A stretch of DNA of 53,869 bases. It comes from a virus. Its lineage: Duplodnaviria; Caudoviricetes. Within the stretch, counting starts at the first letter, position 1, and each line of letters begins with the position of its first letter. The notes beneath the pieces were generated by a model. That model had not been told where the DNA came from, ran no database searches, and worked only from the letters and a program-made list of their open reading frames with translations. Shown in pieces: positions 1 to 10,943 of this stretch. The stretch lies in IMG/VR virus record IMGVR_UViG_3300014156_000002, positions 1 through 53,869 of that record; one strand, written 5' to 3'. A program made the translations under genes and the position numbers.

Positions 1-76
1 CCGCGCACAGCGCCGCCCACAGCGCCGCGCACAGCGTCGCGCACAGCGCCGCCCACAGCGCCGTCCACAGCGCCGC
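1..76. repeat. 76-bp terminal direct overlap, identical to 53794-53869 (circular assembly signature)
   Basis: Base-by-base comparison of the first and last 76 nt shows identity. Removing one copy restores the reading frame across the junction. Confidence 0.9.
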
Positions 77-727
77 CCACAGCGCCGCGCACAGCGCCGC
101 CCACAGCGCCGCGCACAGCGTCGCGCACAGCGCCGCCCACAGCGCCGCCCACAGCGCCGCGCACAGCGCCGCCCACAGCGCCGCTCACAGCGTCGCGCAC
201 AGCGTCGCCCACAGCGTCGCGCACAGCGCCGCCCACAGCGTCGTCCACAGCGTCGCCCACAGCGCCGCTCACAGCGTCGCCCACAGCGCCGCCCACAGCG
301 CCGCTCACAGCGTCGTCCACAGCGTCGTCCACAGCGTCGCGCACAGCGCCGCCCACAGCGCCGCGCACAGCGTCGCTCACAGCGTCGCGCACAGCGCCGC
401 TCACAGCGCCGCGCACAGCGCCGCCCACAGCGCCGCGCACAGCGTCGCGCACAGCGCCGCCCACAGCGCCGCTCACAGCGTCGCGCACAGCGTCGCCCAC
501 AGCGTCGCTCACAGCGCCGCCCACAGCGTCGTCCACAGCGTCGCGCACAGCGCCGCCCACAGCGCCGCGCACAGCGTCGCTCACAGCGTCGCTCACAGCG
601 CCGCCCACAGCGTCGCGCACAGCGCCGCCCACAGCGCCGCTCACAGCGTCGCCCACAGCGCCGCGCACAGCGTCGCGCACAGCGTCGTCCACAGCGCCGC
701 GCACAGCGTCGTCCACAGCGCCGCGCA
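1..727. repeat. Coding 12-bp tandem repeat, consensus CACAGCG(C/T)CG(C/T)N
   Basis: About 60 contiguous units. The minus strand reads (G/D)-A-V-(G/R/S/D). The array continues at 53619-53869. Confidence 0.97.
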
Positions 728-995
728 AATTTTTCCGCGAAGCGACCATTGTTCGCTTCGCTATCTCGATCAGCAACGCAGCAATCGGTCCAGCGAGAGA
801 GACGGCAAGAGGCGAGGTTGTCCAAACGATGACCTTTGGTGATTCCAGGCCGGCGAAACGATAGCACTCGCACACTGCGGCCGCAAACTTCTTTCGGTCA
901 GAGTCTCCGGTGCGCAGCCCGATTTCTATCCACCTGTCGGCCCACTCTTCACAGCGCGCCTTTTGCGCCTCTGTCAGCTTGTCGACTCGTTTCAT
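1..995 (-). CDS. N-terminal part of a DUF6745-like repeat protein (continues across the origin into 53793-52773; 671 aa joined)
   Basis: Not in the ORF track. ATG at 995 overlaps the ParB stop (ATGA). Reads MKRVDKLTEAQKARCEEWADRWIEIGLRTGDSDRKKF..., then the GAV/DAV repeat, open to the window edge. Confidence 0.85.
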   Translation of the reverse strand, partial: MKRVDKLTEAQKARCEEWADRWIEIGLRTGDSDRKKFAAAVCECYRFAGLESPKVIVWTTSPLAVSLAGPIAALLIEIAKRTMVASRKNLRGAVDDAVRGAVDDAVRDAVRGAVGDAVSGAVGGAVRDAVGGAVSDAVSDAVRGAVGGAVRDAVDDAVGGAVSDAVGDAVRDAVSGAVGGAVRDAVRGAVGGAVRGAVSGAVRDAVSDAVRGAVGGAVRDAVDDAVDDAVSGAVGGAVGDAVSGAVGDAVDDAVGGAVRDAVGDAVRDAVSGAVGGAVRGAVGGAVGGAVRDAVRGAVGGAVRGAVGGAVDGAVGGAVRDAVRGAVGGAVR

Positions 996-1771
996 ATTTT
1001 CTCTCCCGCCGCTTCAAGAACCTGTTGTGCCAGTGCTTCCATTTTCTCAAATACCAAATCGTCCTTGATGACGTGACGAGCCAAGTCTACAGCGAGAGCA
1101 GAAAGAGTTTTCGATGGCGAGGCGGGCTTCGGCCGCTTCCCTGTCTCGCGGTCGATGTCGGCCTTGGTAACTTTGCCTTTCGTCTCGGCGACGGCAGCCA
1201 GGTTGCGCTGATGCTCTTTGCCTAGCTTGGCGATTTCCTTTGCGGCGGGGCCTTTGATTTTGCCGGCGCGAATCTGCTTCTCGACTTCCGGCGTGGCTTC
1301 GATGAGCGCGAGTCTGCCCTTGACCCATGACTTCGATGTGCGGTACGCCTCGGCGCAATCGTCCTCGGTCATCTGGTAGACATTGATGAGCTGTTGGAGA
1401 TTGTAGGCGTCGTCCATCGGCGTCGTGGGGTTGCGGACGCGGTTCTCTTCGATATTGGCGAGGAAGGCTTGCTGCTCGGTCAGTTGCGTATAAGAGCAGC
1501 GCAGCTCGAGCGGTTCCTTCTCATAGAGCTTGCGCTTGTTAATCTCAGACACCGGCCGCCAGCGGGAGAACCCGGCGACTAGCACGGGCTTGCCCCCGGT
1601 GCGCCGGATCGTCACAGGCTGTAGCTGCCCGTGGCGAAGAATCGAGTCGATGATCCACTGAATATCCGGCAGATCGTGACGCCCGTTCAGCTTCGGATCG
1701 ACATCGATGTGTTGGGGCAGGAAGCGATTCTCGCTTGTGCGGTGACCAGGTACGGTAAATTCGACAGCCAT
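992..1771 (-). CDS. ParB/Srx N-terminal domain protein with HTH-like region
   Basis: SILRHGQLQPVTIR, LVAGFSRWR and ENRVR motifs typical of ParB-like domains; AAGGAA RBS upstream. Confidence 0.85.
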   Translation of the reverse strand: MAVEFTVPGHRTSENRFLPQHIDVDPKLNGRHDLPDIQWIIDSILRHGQLQPVTIRRTGGKPVLVAGFSRWRPVSEINKRKLYEKEPLELRCSYTQLTEQQAFLANIEENRVRNPTTPMDDAYNLQQLINVYQMTEDDCAEAYRTSKSWVKGRLALIEATPEVEKQIRAGKIKGPAAKEIAKLGKEHQRNLAAVAETKGKVTKADIDRETGKRPKPASPSKTLSALAVDLARHVIKDDLVFEKMEALAQQVLEAAGEKI

Positions 1772-1804
1772 GTGGTTCCTTTCGGAGTCTCGGCAGAGAC
1801 TTAT

Positions 1805-1993
1805 CTACTTGGTAAACAGTTGGCGAAGCTCCTCATCGGTGAGCGTGGGACGCCGCCTATCGGCTGGGCCAGAGAGCAGCGCGTCTTCCATACGATCGAT
1901 GAATCGGCTATCCCGGCGAGCTCGCATGAGGCGCAGGACGGAGCCCACGAGGGCGATGGTGGCGAGGGCGACGAGTATCCAGGCGAGGGTCAT
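1805..1993 (-). CDS. Small single-pass membrane protein
   Basis: Hydrophobic N-terminus. Its ATG overlaps the reconstructed native stop of the upstream ATPase. Confidence 0.7.
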   Translation of the reverse strand: MTLAWILVALATIALVGSVLRLMRARRDSRFIDRMEDALLSGPADRRRPTLTDEELRQLFTK

Positions 1994-2000
1994 TGTGTTT

Positions 2001-3178
2001 GGGATTTATATACATGACTCCCTGGGGGTAGCCAGTATACAATTTTGTTTTGAGGCAGCGCTCTCCCCGAGCGCAAGGATGTTGATTGCGGCGTTGTGGT
2101 CGCGGCCCAAAGATAGCCCACAGTGAGGACATTCATGCTGCCGTTGCGCCAACGTCTTTGGGACCTTTTCGCCGCATCCTGAACAGGTTTTGGTTGTGTT
2201 GCGTGGATCGACCGGCACTACCCATTTCCCAGCCTTCTCAGCTTCGGAGTTGAGTGTTTTAACCAGTTGCGCCCACGCAGCGTCAAGAATTGATTTGGCA
2301 AAGCGGGATTGAGCCATGCCACGGATGTTGAGTTTTTCGTGCGCGATTAGGTCGTATTCGGCCACCAGTTGCTTCGCTACGCCCGTCAGATAGGACAAAC
2401 GCAGTCCAGCGATTCGCTGATGGACGCGGCGTACACGCTCCCGGCTATTGGCCCTGTTCTTGCTTCCTTTGACCTTTCTTGCCAAGTCTTGATTGGCAGC
2501 GGCCAATCTATCCTCTTCCTGTTTTGTCCAGCGTGGATTGGCAATCTCCGACCCGTCACTCAATGTAGCGAGTGTTGTCAATCCAACGTCGATGCCGATC
2601 GCGTTGCGCACGGCGATCCTCTCAGGCGCGGGACCGATGTCGCAAACCACTTGCGCCTGCCACTTGGAGCCGCAGCGTTTTACCCGAATCTCTAACGGAT
2701 CGCCTTTGATCTTGCACTTGGTCTTCGTGCGGAAGGTGCCGAGGCGAGTGAGTTTTAACATCCCACCGGAGAAACTGAAACTCCCAGTCGGTACATTGAA
2801 TGAATCGTATCGATCTCGGCTGCGAAAACGAGGGAATCCTGGTTTTTCGCCGCTTTTGATCCTGCGGAAGAATGCTTTGAAGGCGCGGTCGAGACGGCGC
2901 AATGGATCGCGCTGAATCGCCACAGGGAAATTCCCATACTCCTCAATCCCGCCACGCAATTCGGTAAGTTGCGTCTGCTGATTGAGATAGTTCACTGAGA
3001 ATCGTAACTCTCGATAAGCGTTCCGCCTCTGCTGCAACGCCATGTTATACAATTCGCACAACTGCGCAAGAAGACGATGGAGCGTCTCATCTTGCCGCTT
3101 CGTTACTTTCATGCGCATTGTGTATGTCCGGATCACTGGTTTATCGTACCTCAAAAGGGAGTCAAGTATATAAGTCCC
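2001..3178 (-). mobile_element. Non-autonomous TIR-bounded element carrying tnpB, with 8-bp target-site duplication
   Basis: IR 2001-2023 GGGATTTATATACATGACTCCCT vs reverse complement of 3156-3178 GGGACTTATATACTTGACTCCCT (21/23). TTGTGTTT is directly repeated at 1993-2000 and 3179-3186. Confidence 0.9.
2006..3136 (-). CDS. tnpB: TnpB RNA-guided endonuclease (376 aa from GTG 3136), in frame with the upstream ATPase
   Basis: RTYTMRM..LCELYNMALQQR N-terminus, KPGFPRFRS, RuvC-I IGIDVGL, RuvC-II IAHEKLNI, zinc finger CSGC..CPHC, RuvC-III RDHNAAINI. Confidence 0.95.
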   Translation of the reverse strand: MIRTYTMRMKVTKRQDETLHRLLAQLCELYNMALQQRRNAYRELRFSVNYLNQQTQLTELRGGIEEYGNFPVAIQRDPLRRLDRAFKAFFRRIKSGEKPGFPRFRSRDRYDSFNVPTGSFSFSGGMLKLTRLGTFRTKTKCKIKGDPLEIRVKRCGSKWQAQVVCDIGPAPERIAVRNAIGIDVGLTTLATLSDGSEIANPRWTKQEEDRLAAANQDLARKVKGSKNRANSRERVRRVHQRIAGLRLSYLTGVAKQLVAEYDLIAHEKLNIRGMAQSRFAKSILDAAWAQLVKTLNSEAEKAGKWVVPVDPRNTTKTCSGCGEKVPKTLAQRQHECPHCGLSLGRDHNAAINILALGESAASKQNCILATPRESCI

Positions 3179-3850
3179 TTGTGTTTCTCCCATGAGGCGC
3201 ATTTCAAGTTCCATAAGCGCGGCGCGGACGTTTCCGTTCGTTTGCTTGATAATGCGCGCGCAATTCGGGACCGGAGATTCGGATTCGCTCTGCCACACGC
3301 TTTCGAGCAGACGCGCTGCGTCGGGTTGTATTCCGTAGGTTGTGAAGTTGAGCACGCGATTCCGGCTCAGGAACGCCTCGGAGAGCCGGTCTGTATCGGT
3401 GCAAGTGAACACCCAAACGGTGTCGGGAATCGTCTCAGTTCCGTCCAAATAGCTCAGAATCTCAAGCTGGGCAGCTTCGCTCATCTTATGCGCCTCATCG
3501 ATCACGATTACATGGCGCTCGAAGCCTTTTGGCGCGACGTACCAGCACGAATAGGCCACATCGCGGATAGCATCGACTGTACAGCGTCCAGCTCGGATGT
3601 GATGCACGAATCCTTGTACTTCCCGCGCCAGGGAGAGAGCCATCGAAGTCTTCCCCGTGCCAGCCGAGCCCAGGAACACAAACCCGGCATTCGAGGGGCG
3701 CGCAACGAATCCACCCAGCACGCGCTTTACTTCGCTCAAGCCAGCAAAGTCGGCGATGCGCTGGGGCCTGTAACGCTCGGATATCGGCTCAGGGAAAGCG
3801 AGCAGCGGATCAGGTTCCATCTCGGCAAAGAGTAGGGTTTGAGCGCTCAT
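3179..3850 (-). CDS. Clamp-loader/RarA-like AAA+ ATPase; stop codon displaced by the insertion, reads through into TnpB (2006-3850, 614 aa)
   Basis: ERYRPQRIADFAG, Walker A GSAGTGKTS, Walker B IVIDEAH, LSR arginine finger, GNVRAAL sensor 2. Confidence 0.88.
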
Positions 3851-4191
3851 GCGGCCCTCCCGGTGCAGTCGTCGCCATAGTGACCGCAGATCGGACAGAG
3901 ACCAGCGCCGCGCTTAACGTGCTCAGTTGTCGATTGTGTGGGGACGCGGAAATTACGCGAACGGTTGAGCAGCGACCCATCGGCTATCGATCCGATGGTT
4001 CTCCACACTCTAGCATTGTGAGAGATAGGCAGCGTGTCTAGAATGGCCACGATGCCACTGAGTTCGTTCAGGATGGAATCGAAGCGACCTGCGGACAGTT
4101 CCCCGGCTTCGACCTCATTTACAAATCCCCGTAGCCGCGCTTCGCACAGCTTCAGGGACGCTTTCTCTTTGGCTGTCAGTAAAGGGTGCAT
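3847..4191 (-). CDS. Hypothetical protein (114 aa from ATG 4191) with C-terminal CxxC
   Basis: AAGGAG RBS before ATG 4191; stop overlaps the ATPase start. Confidence 0.7.
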   Translation of the reverse strand: MHPLLTAKEKASLKLCEARLRGFVNEVEAGELSAGRFDSILNELSGIVAILDTLPISHNARVWRTIGSIADGSLLNRSRNFRVPTQSTTEHVKRGAGLCPICGHYGDDCTGRAA

Positions 4192-7997: not shown

Positions 7998-10943
7998 GTG
8001 TTTTCTAAGCGATTGGCTACCGAACAGCTTTCGCTTCTCTCCGAGGCGTCGGCGAAGTCCGAGACCGGCCTCTGGATACCCGAGTACCACTCCATTTCAC
8101 AGATTGACTCGTTCAACTCCCACTTCAGAGCTCTCGCCGAAAAATCCATCTACGATAACACCGATGTCGAAGATGCGCTCGGTCCCGAGGAGCTTGCATG
8201 GATCGCCAACGAGTATCAGATTTGCGCCTGCGATGACCGCTACTGGTTCGAGAGCTACTTCTACATCAACGATGACTCGAACATCATCCGCTTCAACCCG
8301 CGCTTTTCGCAGGCCATGCTTATCGACATGTGGGCAGAGCGCGAAGAGGCTGGGTTGCCGATCGAGCAGCAAATACTTAAAGCCAGGCAGCAAGGGACAT
8401 GCCTTGAGCCCAGTACTCCCGTTTTAACTTCTGATTTGCGATGGGTCCCTGTTGGGGAGATTAAGATAGGCGAATCAATTTTGGCTGTCGATGAATTTCC
8501 GCCCGGAGGAAAAGGTGCCGGACGAAAAATGCGCAAGGGAATTGTCGAAGCAAAGACTGAAGTCTTGGAGATCGCTTTCAGGCTTACATTCGAGAACGGC
8601 GACGTTCTACTATCGACTCCCTCGCACAGATGGTTGGCGAACAAATGCCGGAATAGTCCCGAGACGGCATGGAAGCAAACGAGACAATTGCGCATCGGGG
8701 ATTCTGTTCGATTTATCACAGAGAAGTGGCTTGACTCTGACTACGAGGACGGATGGTTCGGTGGGTTCCTTGACGGTGAGGCTACTTTGAGGCCAAAGAC
8801 TCGCGCCGGTGTGGAACTAACGATGCATCAGGTAGAGGGCAACGTTCTTCGTAGAGCGCGAAAATATCTTGCCGAAAACGGGTACAACTTCCGCGAAGAA
8901 ATAGACAATCGGAATGTCTTGAATAGCACTCGCGTTGGCAATAAACCTGTGCATAGGCTAATTGTTGGACGACTGGATCAAATCATCAGGTTGATTGGAA
9001 AGACGCGTCCAGTGAGATTCCCGCAGGAGTGGTGGGATGGCAAAGAACTTCCCGGCAAAAAAGTAGGCGGAGGATGGCGAACCATCATTGCGGCCGAAAT
9101 GCTTCCCCATCAGCGCATGATTGATCTGCAAACCTCAACGAAGACATTCATCGCCAACGGGTACGTCTCACATAATTCAACCGTGGTCGAGGGCGCCATC
9201 GCCAAAAAGGTAAATTTCGGCATCGGCGTGAAGGCGGCGGTGGCCTCCTACGATCAGGACGCCGGCGAGCGCATGGGCGGCATGATGGAGCTCGCCTTCA
9301 ATGAGATGCCTAGCTGGATGAAGGCCAATCCCACCTCCGATCGCGCCGGATCGCTCAAGGCGTTCGCCGCGACAAATACGCGCCTGACAATTTATTCCGG
9401 CAAGAAAGCGGCCGGGATCGCCCGTGGCGATACGCCATCGGTCATTCACATCTCCGAGGTGTCCACTTTCCCCGACGCATCGAACGTCATCGAAAAGTCG
9501 CTCTTCAACGCGGTCCATCCGACGCGCAACACGTTCATGATCCTTGAATCGACCGGCAACGGGAACACGGACTGGTGGGCGCGGACATGGTATTCGAGCC
9601 GCGACTACTGGGCCTCTGGCGGGGCCAGGTTGCAGCCGGTGTTCTTCCCCTGGTTCATCGCCATTGACCTCTTCCCGACGCCCACATGGAGGCAGGAGCA
9701 CCCCGTGCCGCGCGACTGGGAGCCCCTGGGCGAGACGCGCCGCATGATGGCGAAGGCGGCAGCCTACGTGCATCAGACTCCGCTCATCAGGAAGTACGCC
9801 GGTGACGATTGGCGGATGCAGGATTTTCAGGCTTACTACTGGGAGCAACAGCTACTAGAAGCGCGGCGCAAGGGAGACGAGAACGCCTGGTATCAGGAAA
9901 TGCCGATGGACGACATGGAGGCGTTGCGCCCGAAAAAGGATCTCGTCTTCAATCTTCTCGAAGTCCAGAAGCAGGAAGAAACCCGGTCTCCCTACACGGT
10001 CTGGTCGATCATCGGTGAGCAAATTCAGGAGAGGTATTATCCAGATGAAACAGAAATTGATCGCAGTGTCGAACCCTTCAGGGTCAGCTACGACGGCAAT
10101 ATCACGGACCTTCGCGGGCGCGTGCAAAAGACGTTCTGGTGGGAGTTTGTGCCACTCAAACAGCCAAAGGAATCAGGCATCGACATCTTCGAGGCCGAGC
10201 GGCGGTGCCTCATTTTCAAGTGGCCGGAGGCCGGATACACCTATGGCATCGGGGTGGACAACTCCGGGGGGACCGGGAAAGACGGCAGCTACATCAGCGT
10301 GAACGCGAAGTCGATCTATTCGAGCGAGCCGGATTTTCAGGCGGCGTGCTTCTGGTCGAACAAGGTTGACCCGTCTCTAATTCACCCGTACATCATGGCG
10401 CTGGTCGCGCTCTACAAGATCGAGATGCCCGAAGGCAATGAGCCGATGGTGGGAATCGAGCAGGTATACGGCCTCGGCGACACGCCACAGATTCAGATGC
10501 TGTCGATGGGGTTTAACAAGCGAAATCTGTACCACTTTTCGCGGTTGGATGGAAGGAACCCGGAGGCCGACAAGAAGAGGTCGAAGCGCCTCGGCTGGTA
10601 CACGACGGAGTGGAGCCGCAACTTCATGCTATCGATGTACAAGACGGCAGTCGAAAACCACTGGCGCAAGGTGAATGACCCGTTTTTGCTCAAGCAGGAG
10701 ATTCCGGCGTTTCAGGTGGATAAGACGGAAAGCGGTAAGACACGGTGGGATCACGAGGACGGCAAGCGCGATGATCGCATCTTCGGAGACGGCATTTCCT
10801 ACATCATCCTGAACGACACAGAATCGATGACCCGGCGCGTACAATCGAAATTCGAGGGCGAAGAAGAGGAAATTGAGCTTAATATGAATTATCCAGTCGG
10901 GATCAACTCGACGATGGAAGAGATGTTCGGAGCCGAGCTATGA
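7998..10943 (+). CDS. terL: Terminase large subunit, intein-containing
   Basis: ILKARQQGT|ST Walker A split by an intein, IHISEV Walker B, ILESTGNG, YGIGVD and DDRIFGD nuclease motifs. Confidence 0.92.
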   Translation: MFSKRLATEQLSLLSEASAKSETGLWIPEYHSISQIDSFNSHFRALAEKSIYDNTDVEDALGPEELAWIANEYQICACDDRYWFESYFYINDDSNIIRFNPRFSQAMLIDMWAEREEAGLPIEQQILKARQQGTCLEPSTPVLTSDLRWVPVGEIKIGESILAVDEFPPGGKGAGRKMRKGIVEAKTEVLEIAFRLTFENGDVLLSTPSHRWLANKCRNSPETAWKQTRQLRIGDSVRFITEKWLDSDYEDGWFGGFLDGEATLRPKTRAGVELTMHQVEGNVLRRARKYLAENGYNFREEIDNRNVLNSTRVGNKPVHRLIVGRLDQIIRLIGKTRPVRFPQEWWDGKELPGKKVGGGWRTIIAAEMLPHQRMIDLQTSTKTFIANGYVSHNSTVVEGAIAKKVNFGIGVKAAVASYDQDAGERMGGMMELAFNEMPSWMKANPTSDRAGSLKAFAATNTRLTIYSGKKAAGIARGDTPSVIHISEVSTFPDASNVIEKSLFNAVHPTRNTFMILESTGNGNTDWWARTWYSSRDYWASGGARLQPVFFPWFIAIDLFPTPTWRQEHPVPRDWEPLGETRRMMAKAAAYVHQTPLIRKYAGDDWRMQDFQAYYWEQQLLEARRKGDENAWYQEMPMDDMEALRPKKDLVFNLLEVQKQEETRSPYTVWSIIGEQIQERYYPDETEIDRSVEPFRVSYDGNITDLRGRVQKTFWWEFVPLKQPKESGIDIFEAERRCLIFKWPEAGYTYGIGVDNSGGTGKDGSYISVNAKSIYSSEPDFQAACFWSNKVDPSLIHPYIMALVALYKIEMPEGNEPMVGIEQVYGLGDTPQIQMLSMGFNKRNLYHFSRLDGRNPEADKKRSKRLGWYTTEWSRNFMLSMYKTAVENHWRKVNDPFLLKQEIPAFQVDKTESGKTRWDHEDGKRDDRIFGDGISYIILNDTESMTRRVQSKFEGEEEEIELNMNYPVGINSTMEEMFGAEL
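8400..9176 (+). mobile_element. Intein (259 aa) in terminase Walker A with one LAGLIDADG-like motif
   Basis: Starts CLEPSTPV, block B TPSHRW, GWFGGFLDGEA, ends FIANGYVSHN followed by Ser. Confidence 0.93.

Follow-up and report, generated by a model that had tools for sequence, protein, structure and literature searches.

A phage tnpB gene between IS1595-type inverted repeats and an 8-bp duplication

The DNA analysed here, called the window throughout, is the complete IMG/VR virus record IMGVR_UViG_3300014156_000002 (Caudoviricetes; 53,869 bp, with direct terminal repeats). A 1178-bp unit at window 2001-3178 contained a single gene, tnpB, on the minus strand, and was bounded by terminal inverted repeats (TIRs) and an 8-bp target-site duplication (TSD). 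This element probably belongs, as a non-autonomous copy, to a large group of IS1595-family TIR elements from peat and soil phages and Acidobacteriota. Its insertion site in this peat-soil phage lies between an AAA+ ATPase stop codon and the gene start that follows. TnpB has been thought to be tied to the scarless transposition of IS605 and IS607 elements, and its pairing with DDE transposons in prokaryotes has been described as rare. The unit had been noticed in an earlier inspection of the letters and open reading frames (ORFs), referred to below as the sequence-only reading.

The features of the element and its borders were as follows.

1993..2000, unstranded: TSD, right-end copy (minus-strand reading AAACACAA)
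2001..2023, unstranded: right inverted repeat (right end, RE, at the 3' end of tnpB), from the inverted-repeat search
2006..3136, minus strand: tnpB, 376 aa from GTG 3136 (370 aa from ATG 3118), stop codon at 2006-2008
3156..3178, unstranded: left inverted repeat (left end, LE, upstream of tnpB), from the inverted-repeat search and the L002/L003 boundary
3179..3186, unstranded: TSD, LE copy, from the sequence

The two inverted arms were 23 nt each and matched at 21 of 23 positions (91% complementary), and they were the longest of the 47 inverted pairs that the repeat search returned for 1900-3300. An exact 8-bp duplication, TTGTGTTT, stood directly outside the arms at 1993-2000 and 3179-3186. 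The sequence-only reading had described the same 1178-bp unit and duplication, and both were recovered by the repeat search and in the sequence; the quasi-palindromic ends that it had pointed out were also seen, with GGGA at the start and TCCC at the end of both arms. Moreover, the 13-mer end motif (at most 2 mismatches) occurred four times in the window, compared with 0.61 expected, and none of 100 shuffles reached at least four.

The boundaries were confirmed independently by other copies. A 95.7% identical 1178-bp copy was present in L002 and L003, which are one locus from two viral contigs, and was flanked by unrelated genes. The likeness to the window spanned 3178..2000 and ended there. 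Furthermore, each of the 24 peat and wetland study runs that were listed contained part of the window stretch. Contigs from three of the peat/wetland DNA runs spanned the element and broke off at 2000 and 3178, and one such run had a different flank beyond 3178. The window and L002 elements differed at 51 positions, which were concentrated in two patches. These patches lay at window 2072-2168 and about 2840-2865 (element positions 1012-1121 and 315-339), and the peat contigs carried this diverged block as well, a pattern that points to exchange among variants of the element.

The ends of the element were shared with a large set of other elements. The end-motif scan of viral contigs matched at least 120 stretches, and all pair counts given here are among the matches listed. 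The ends formed 83 pairs of 222 bp to 3.9 kb, the short ones being miniature elements. An exact 8-bp direct repeat was found immediately outside 55 of the 83 pairs and, with tnpB-bearing pairs set aside, outside 55 of the 80 pairs without TnpB, an uncleaned set that included one duplicate locus (L040 = L124) and several overlapping or doubtful pairs (L031 3053-6989, L049 7107-7602, L088 8377-9784, L051 and L076). The duplicated 8-mers had the palindromic AT-rich consensus hWWnnWWd. In tblastn searches with three transposase queries, 24 pairs enclosed a near-full-length IS1595-family DDE transposase, with an exact duplication in 16. The three queries matched PF12762 (DDE_Tnp_IS1595) with E values of 5e-38 to 6e-47, together with PF12760, and scored 196-209 bits on NF033547 against a cut-off of 75. 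For instance, L066 encodes a transposase, each of its ends is one base off each window arm, and its duplication is AAAAACAA.

Compared with the IS1595 family, the group agreed in the transposases of the siblings, in the short repeats starting with GG, in the 8-bp AT-rich duplications and in methylase passengers. The window element had the 22-23-bp ends of the group and the 8-bp TSD, and its TIRs were those of transposase-bearing members, as the arms of L066 showed. The zinc-ribbon DDE transposase of the family was missing from the window copy and present in siblings with near-identical ends. Because the window copy is without a transposase, it is better called a non-autonomous derivative than an insertion sequence. 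Autonomous DDE elements with the same ends, which the sequence-only reading had proposed to search for, are thus the 24 transposase-bearing pairs, and other tnpB copies with different duplications were found as well (AATTAAAT, CTAAGAAT, CTAAAATA, ATTAACAA and ATATTATA). Sibling ends, transposases and 8-bp duplications all supported its proposal of a non-autonomous IS1595-type cassette moved in trans. A resemblance to the ISNwi1 subgroup is possible and concerns the end consensus of that subgroup (ggnnatTAT versus GGGAcTTAT).

Other pairs carried N6/N4 or C5 DNA methylases, with or without a transposase. Methylase-carrying phage loci included L060, L068, L073, L103, L125, L129 and L139, and these IS1595-type elements are a transposon family that shuttles cargo in viruses. 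A cluster of 16 ORFs of 179-579 aa ("Cluster 1"; L036, L050, L067, L114 and 12 more loci) was first taken as a new passenger protein and proved to be a shadow frame antisense to the transposase; its four scanned representatives were without a Pfam match. In L012, a DDE gene (37% identical) lay 1.7 kb from tnpB, and it was rejected as part of a joint element, as no repeat pair encloses both genes.

Neither the element nor the rest of the 53,869-bp record was found to encode an IS1595 transposase, which agrees with the absence noted in the sequence-only reading and leaves movement in trans as the only option. The host or a co-resident element would provide the transposase. The genes on both sides of the insertion were as follows.

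1805..1993, minus strand: downstream ORF of 62 aa, from the ORF list, no Pfam family
3179..3850, minus strand: clamp-loader-like AAA+ ATPase gene (Pfam AAA; below 30% identity to phage clamp loaders)

Excision of 2001-3186 restored ATG GGA GAA ACA CAA TGA on the minus strand, and in this reconstructed site the ATPase stop overlaps the ATG (ATGA) of the 62-aa ORF. This overlap, put forward in the sequence-only reading as support for the boundaries, was reproduced from the sequence and the ORF list. The final A of AAACACAA (1993..2000, minus strand) is the A of the next gene's ATG. The insertion parted the ATPase gene from its stop codon, and the ATPase frame now crosses the left repeat and continues in tnpB without a stop, forming a single ORF of 614 aa (2006..3850, minus strand). 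An empty allele of this site was sought, as had been suggested. With the ATPase protein as query, viral contigs gave 13 pattern stretches, of which 0 were confirmed as relatives, and its matches among 392 phage records were all below 30% identity. The exact 21-mer of window 1980-2000 occurred in 0 stretches of viral contigs, and the four runs searched gave no joint skipping the element and no contig over 1724-1966 or reaching across the junction at 2000 from outside. The result was an absence of data and does not speak against the existence of an empty allele.

The TnpB protein was typical of its family. It matched PF01385 (OrfB_IS605, E 2.9e-22) and PF07282 (Cas12f1-like_TNB, E 1.9e-21), and scored 247.8 bits on the NCBIfam model guided_TnpB (NF040570; cut-off 100). 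The RuvC D-E-D triad and the CxxC..CxxC zinc finger were intact; D177, E261 and D340 (numbered from ATG 3118) and the four zinc-finger cysteines were invariant in an alignment of 19 sequences (alignment A1). The dN/dS ratio against the L002 copy was 0.27. By these sequence measures, TnpB is intact and under purifying selection. The start is most likely GTG 3136 rather than ATG 3118, judging from the alignment, in which GTG 3136, unlike ATG 3118, coincides with the first methionine of the relatives. The final five codons (R-E-S-C-I) and the TAA stop were encoded inside the 2001-2023 repeat, and a C-terminus ending in SCI or LCI was encoded likewise in several relatives. The view that tnpB fills the unit was kept, with the start moved from ATG 3118 and the 3' end placed inside the repeat.

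The promoter and terminator scan of 1700-3900 gave chance counts (1 compared with 1.0 expected, and 3 compared with 2.4), with no promoter-like site facing tnpB. Translation of TnpB may proceed from the host gene that lies upstream or be coupled to it, because there is no promoter room in the element and the frame is open from the ATPase. One contig of the RNA library X22 spanned 3015-3246 at 100% identity, and it was not counted as expression, as DNA carry-over is possible. The open ATPase-tnpB frame and this contig may reflect co-transcription, coupled or fused translation, or chance.

It might be asked whether this is an ordinary IS200/IS605- or IS607-type tnpB element whose repeats are coincidental. 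The protein itself was closest to IS200/IS605-type TnpB, with 218.7 bits on NF038281 and nearly full-length matches to the ISDra2 TnpB structures 8bf8, 8exa and 8h1j (E 5e-49); it reached just 128.2 bits on the IS607_TnpB model, against a cut-off of 350. According to a 2026 review (PMC13565253), IS200/IS605 and IS607 have neither TIRs nor TSDs, whereas the window element has both and so falls outside the definitions of these families. IS200/IS605 elements are further characterised by asymmetric hairpin ends and a Y1 TnpA, and IS607 elements by a serine-recombinase TnpA and ends in GG. The same repeats and 8-bp duplications bounded IS1595 transposases or methylases in dozens of loci. Furthermore, no motif lay directly against the left end, positions -5..-1 there being without conservation where an IS605 target-adjacent motif (TAM) would lie. 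The coincidence is therefore hardly credible.

The distribution of related TnpBs was studied in viral contigs, species genomes and metagenomes. A protein-based scan gave 26 loci in viral contigs, and tnpB relatives were confirmed in 484 of 600 stretches from species genomes and in 161 of 242 from metagenomes, the best 80 being kept in each case. The tree contained 78 sequences, namely 53 distinct relatives with at least 44% identity, the window and the 24 next best as the outgroup. All TnpBs with a recognisable end of this type fell in one clade of 51 rows (SH-aLRT 96), whose identity to the window protein went down to about 50%. One or both ends were recognised in 33 of the 51 rows inside the clade and in 0 of 27 outside it. 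Both ends were recognised in 17 rows, the right end alone in 15 and the left end alone in one; detection used the 13-mer with at most 2 mismatches, and rows scored as "none" may have diverged or other ends (L011 and L020). The sources of the clade were viral contigs, soil and peat contigs, and genomes of Acidobacteriaceae and Terriglobia (L149 and L151); the Verrucomicrobia row L148 had no end of this type. The tree thus indicates that the pairing of IS1595-type ends with TnpB is an old, lineage-wide association and not a one-off capture. The association of ends and TnpB in the sequence-only reading stood, in this wider form. In addition, the Acidobacteriaceae genome holding L149 had nine IS1595 transposase matches, and one of these nine copies had related ends (17/22 positions) and the duplication TTTATTTT.

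Several loci showed unusual ends or lengths. The clade member L011 had a perfect 32-bp inverted pair (2896-2927/4072-4103) beginning GGGCAATAACATAC. L020, also of the clade, had an inverted pair at 2966-2981/4091-4106 of the GTAGTGGG / GTAGTGGGTC type, with the direct repeat (C)AACAACCA. In L004 (about 2940-4110) the tnpB was 70% identical and without a left repeat; by eye, the 8-bp direct repeat AACAGGAG lay 3 nt before the start codon and again directly after the right end ...GAGTCCC. L019 carried a duplicated right end at 3192-3290, with two repeats 86 bp apart downstream of a single tnpB. L233 1441-2826 was an element of the L002 type with 1386 bp instead of 1178, as a stretch of about 208 bp inside its tnpB was duplicated in tandem.

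The greater persistence of the right end in the clade would suit a relic, or domesticated cassette, which arrived long ago by IS1595 transposition and is immobile now, its TnpB being retained by the phage for homing or against competitors. The right repeat would then persist because both the guide RNA and the TnpB reading frame include it. The multiple coding of this repeat, the single copy and missing transposase in the phage, and the lack of a duplication at most TnpB copies agree with that possibility. Against it, the 96% identical copy, which lies in a different and unrelated phage context, had two intact repeats and exact boundaries, and the window arms still matched at 21/23 positions beside a perfect duplication. 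Moreover, the peat and wetland contigs broke exactly at both ends, one with a third flank, and six distinct exact 8-bp duplications occurred among TnpB copies. An immobile relic was accordingly considered unlikely, and a mobile IS1595-type element moved in trans was preferred.

The duplications of TnpB-bearing elements were compared with those of elements carrying other cargo. An exact 8-bp duplication was present in 6 of 21 TnpB-bearing elements, and two more matched at 7/8 positions. The deficit relative to the 55/80 of other cargo was significant (Fisher p 0.001). L310, a 99.7-99.9% identical relative of L002, was without the element: L002 1789-2940 corresponded to L310 3-1154, and L002 4119-5929 to L310 1501-3311. 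The L002 element thus replaces 346 bp of L310, and the lost stretch ended flush with the right repeat. In L310, the junction on the left, G|AAAAGAAT, was a good target, and the right junction, TATCG|ATTCTG, was also G|A. This right junction lay inside the signal-peptide codons of a pectate-lyase-like gene.

The right repeat holds an outward-facing GGGAG...ATG (GGGAGTCATG), and in L002 this ATG was in frame with the truncated gene (M-Y-I-N-P-I-L-L-C-C...). In 8 of 13 duplication-less elements, the longest ORF downstream was in the frame of the ATG position (binomial p 0.035); two of the eight, L149 and L257, were without the ATG itself. The in-frame gene at L017 encoded an HNH endonuclease that was about 55 N-terminal residues shorter than a 53% identical homologue. 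From the direct case of L002 and the indirect one of L017, we infer that right-end-only strand transfer or an equivalent process makes adjacent deletions, and that selection keeps in-frame fusions. By a hand count, the left 8-mers of duplication-less copies still fitted the DDE target consensus. Recombinant flanks were also considered for these copies and rejected: their right 8-mers had A/T at position 6 in 4/13 and at position 7 in 8/13, compared with 49/55 and 53/55 in true duplications. A 9-mer, GAAAAGAAT, to the left of both L002 and L229 was likewise discarded as part of the element, since about 0.4 such pairs in 210 would be expected by a rough estimate.

These junctions also bear on spread mainly by recombination, in which breaks made by TnpB are repaired from the carrier, or right-end-only events occur, without the work of a DDE enzyme. 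The commonness of right-end-flush junctions, such as the exchange in L002 and L310 with G|A at both sites, and the shortened HNH gene beside the L017 element would fit, as would the right-end-only copies L247/L249. In addition, phage genomes are mosaic, and L311 differed again upstream. Homing, however, copies flanks faithfully, so that no new right-side junctions should arise. The window copy and five others had clean 8-bp duplications on both repeats, which is a DDE signature, and the fit of the left 8-mers to the DDE consensus pointed the same way. Recombination as the main route was judged very unlikely, and transposition by an IS1595 enzyme in trans remained the favoured explanation.

The flanks were compared between 21 distinct TnpB-bearing elements, oriented by tnpB, and elements with other cargo. 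The feature of interest was the following.

3187, minus strand: candidate TAM base G, immediately 5' of the duplicated 8-mer (-9 from LE)

The base at -9 was G in 20 of 21 TnpB-bearing elements and in 20 of 55 non-TnpB elements (Fisher p 2e-6), and the base at -8 was A in 18/21 and 18/55, respectively. Of 32 distinct right flanks, 26 had A as the first base past the right repeat and none had G. No excess of C was found at +9 on the right. The signal was one-sided, and hence follows the orientation of tnpB and not a symmetric transposase target. We infer from these flanks that the signal with G at -9 is probably all or part of a TAM. This G stands before the sequence matching the guide (the 8-mer with its flank) when the site is empty, and the terminal C of the repeat takes that place at the occupied right junction. 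The guide may start at flank base 1 or after A-W, both of which are compatible with the sequence.

The 3' part of tnpB was also examined for a guide RNA. Nucleotide conservation extended beyond the conserved protein domain, through the tnpB 3' end up to the right repeat, and two features were predicted.

1979..2000, minus strand: predicted guide flank of a read-through omega RNA (AAACACAATGACCCTCGCC...), by analogy with IS605 TnpB
2001..2110, minus strand: conserved structured 3' region, candidate omega RNA scaffold (alignment A4, 29 relatives; RNAalifold)

In a four-helix structure for the 29 right ends, 85.1% of cells were paired, compared with 76.4% in shuffles (0/500 as high) and 30-51% in a partner-sliding control. 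Changes on both sides of a pair occurred in 53 cells, compared with 17.4 in shuffles, and the covariation score was 0.254 compared with 0.125. The best stem, GCGCTC..GAGCGC, showed compensatory changes even between the window and the 96% identical copy. In the last helix, the inner half of the right repeat pairs with upstream sequence; when this hairpin was tested in each sequence, a shuffle P of at most 0.05 was obtained in 3/29 only. An Rfam search of 1800-3400 with E up to 1 gave 0 matches. Taken across the alignment, a covarying RNA structure that reaches into the right repeat is supported.

A possible course of events can be outlined from these results. The 3' end of the tnpB mRNA would be processed to an omega RNA, whose scaffold includes the right repeat and whose guide is the adjoining flank. 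Where a competing genome has this site without the element, the TnpB-RNA complex may cut it, which would favour copying or retention of the element. Part of the TAM would be the G that precedes the duplicated 8-mer, and its replacement by the last C of the right repeat would spare the carrier.

A tentative extension of this scheme, which is possible and on present evidence rather doubtful, is that nuclease and DDE transposon are interlocked into a self-retargeting gene-drive cassette for phage populations. The TAM would straddle the strand-transfer site (..G|A-W..), so that each insertion makes a guide against the empty allele, and the terminal C of the repeat would disrupt the TAM on the carrier. 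The right repeat would have four roles, as the transposase site, the C-terminus and stop of TnpB, the omega RNA scaffold, and an outward ribosome-binding site with ATG. Right-end-only strand transfer would produce flush deletions, reset the guide and fuse the ATG of the repeat in frame to a truncated downstream gene.

Several findings weigh against the account of an IS1595-type element moved in trans and carrying an RNA-guided TnpB. The phage itself encodes no transposase, no DDE gene and tnpB were found together inside one pair of these ends, and the IS1595 ends in the one host genome, that of L149, differed at 5/22 positions. In the clade, the right end alone was recognisable in 15/51 members. 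L247 404-1575 and L249 968-2139 held a 99.8% identical 1172-bp tnpB unit in two unrelated contexts, in which the right repeat was present and the left end, CCCGTGGTGC..., was without an inverted repeat. Exact duplications were in the minority among TnpB-bearing elements, and an empty allele of the window's own site was not found in viral contigs or the four runs. A TAM signal of one or two bases is weaker than known TnpB TAMs. The four-helix structure was derived from the same sequences used to test it, and its strongest stem lay in coding sequence; the single-sequence fold of window 1985-2150 had a z of -0.81, with 42/200 shuffles as good. Furthermore, expression and activity of TnpB are predictions.

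TnpBs on DDE transposons have been reported before. In the main text of Altae-Tran et al. (PNAS 2023, PMC10691335), six DDE-associated TnpB branches (DDE-1 to DDE-6), all with inverted terminal repeats, are described, with tnpB 3' ends at most 250 bp from the transposon end. The same source reports solo TnpBs with near-identical ends, for which movement in trans was proposed. Its main text names IS630 and mentions IS1595 zero times, and its supplements may list such loci. The 2026 review gives ISL2, IS630 and IS1031 as DDE partners of TnpB (PMC13565253). The general concept of prokaryotic TnpB on DDE/TIR transposons, with solo copies moved in trans, is therefore already published. Compared by concept with the DDE-TnpBs of Altae-Tran et al., the present element agreed in having TnpB within DDE-type TIRs, a 3' end near the transposon end and solo movement in trans. 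It differed in that tnpB overlaps the repeat, no joint DDE and tnpB copy was found, and the group is largely phage-borne. In the literature searched, no paper linking TnpB to IS1595 was found, nor any mention of TnpB as an IS1595 passenger. The IS1595 partner and a phage-borne family with varied cargo appear to be new and testable. So do the repeat that overlaps both gene and RNA, the G|A rule for one flank and the right-end-flush deletions.

The element can also be compared with Fanzors. In Fanzors on TIR/TSD transposons, the repeat and even the duplication join the guide-RNA scaffold, according to Yoon et al. (NAR 2023, PMC10711439). Like Fanzor1 and Fanzor2* in TIR/TSD transposons of eukaryotes and viruses, the window element has a TnpB-family nuclease as the sole gene of a non-autonomous TIR element in a virus. 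The picture of the repeat within the scaffold given there also matched, the scaffold here being predicted from sequence. Unlike Fanzors, the element belongs to a bacterial virus and encodes a compact canonical TnpB of 376 aa. The 8-bp duplication is variable here, so that at most its first bases could join the scaffold. Among natural proteins with a solved structure, ISDra2 TnpB was the closest relative, and it shares the catalytic triad and the zinc finger. Its TAM is TTGAT (PMC11043419), and the N-G-A-W of the left flank resembles the 3' part of that motif. ISDra2 is without TIRs and TSDs, is moved by a Y1 TnpA and has a TAM abutting the left end, whereas here the G is 9 bases off, outside the 8-mer.

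The element may thus be viewed as the bacterial-virus counterpart of Fanzors riding inverted-repeat transposons in eukaryotes. The lineage provides a prokaryotic setting in which to model how a Fanzor-like nuclease accommodates TIRs and TSDs, and the flank statistics offer a testable rule for a TAM that coexists with a variable 8-bp duplication. The element family also moves DNA methylases between phages. In addition, compact nucleases of 376 aa, with the end of the guide RNA set by a known repeat, would be candidates for editing tools.

Two further regions of the window were noted. Window 1-995 was a long GC-rich imperfect short-period repeat that was open in several frames; a 331-aa minus-strand ORF in it had GAVxDAV repeats and a weak Gly-zipper match. 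Window 7998-10943 contained a 981-aa ORF, for which no Pfam family was found at E of at most 0.001.

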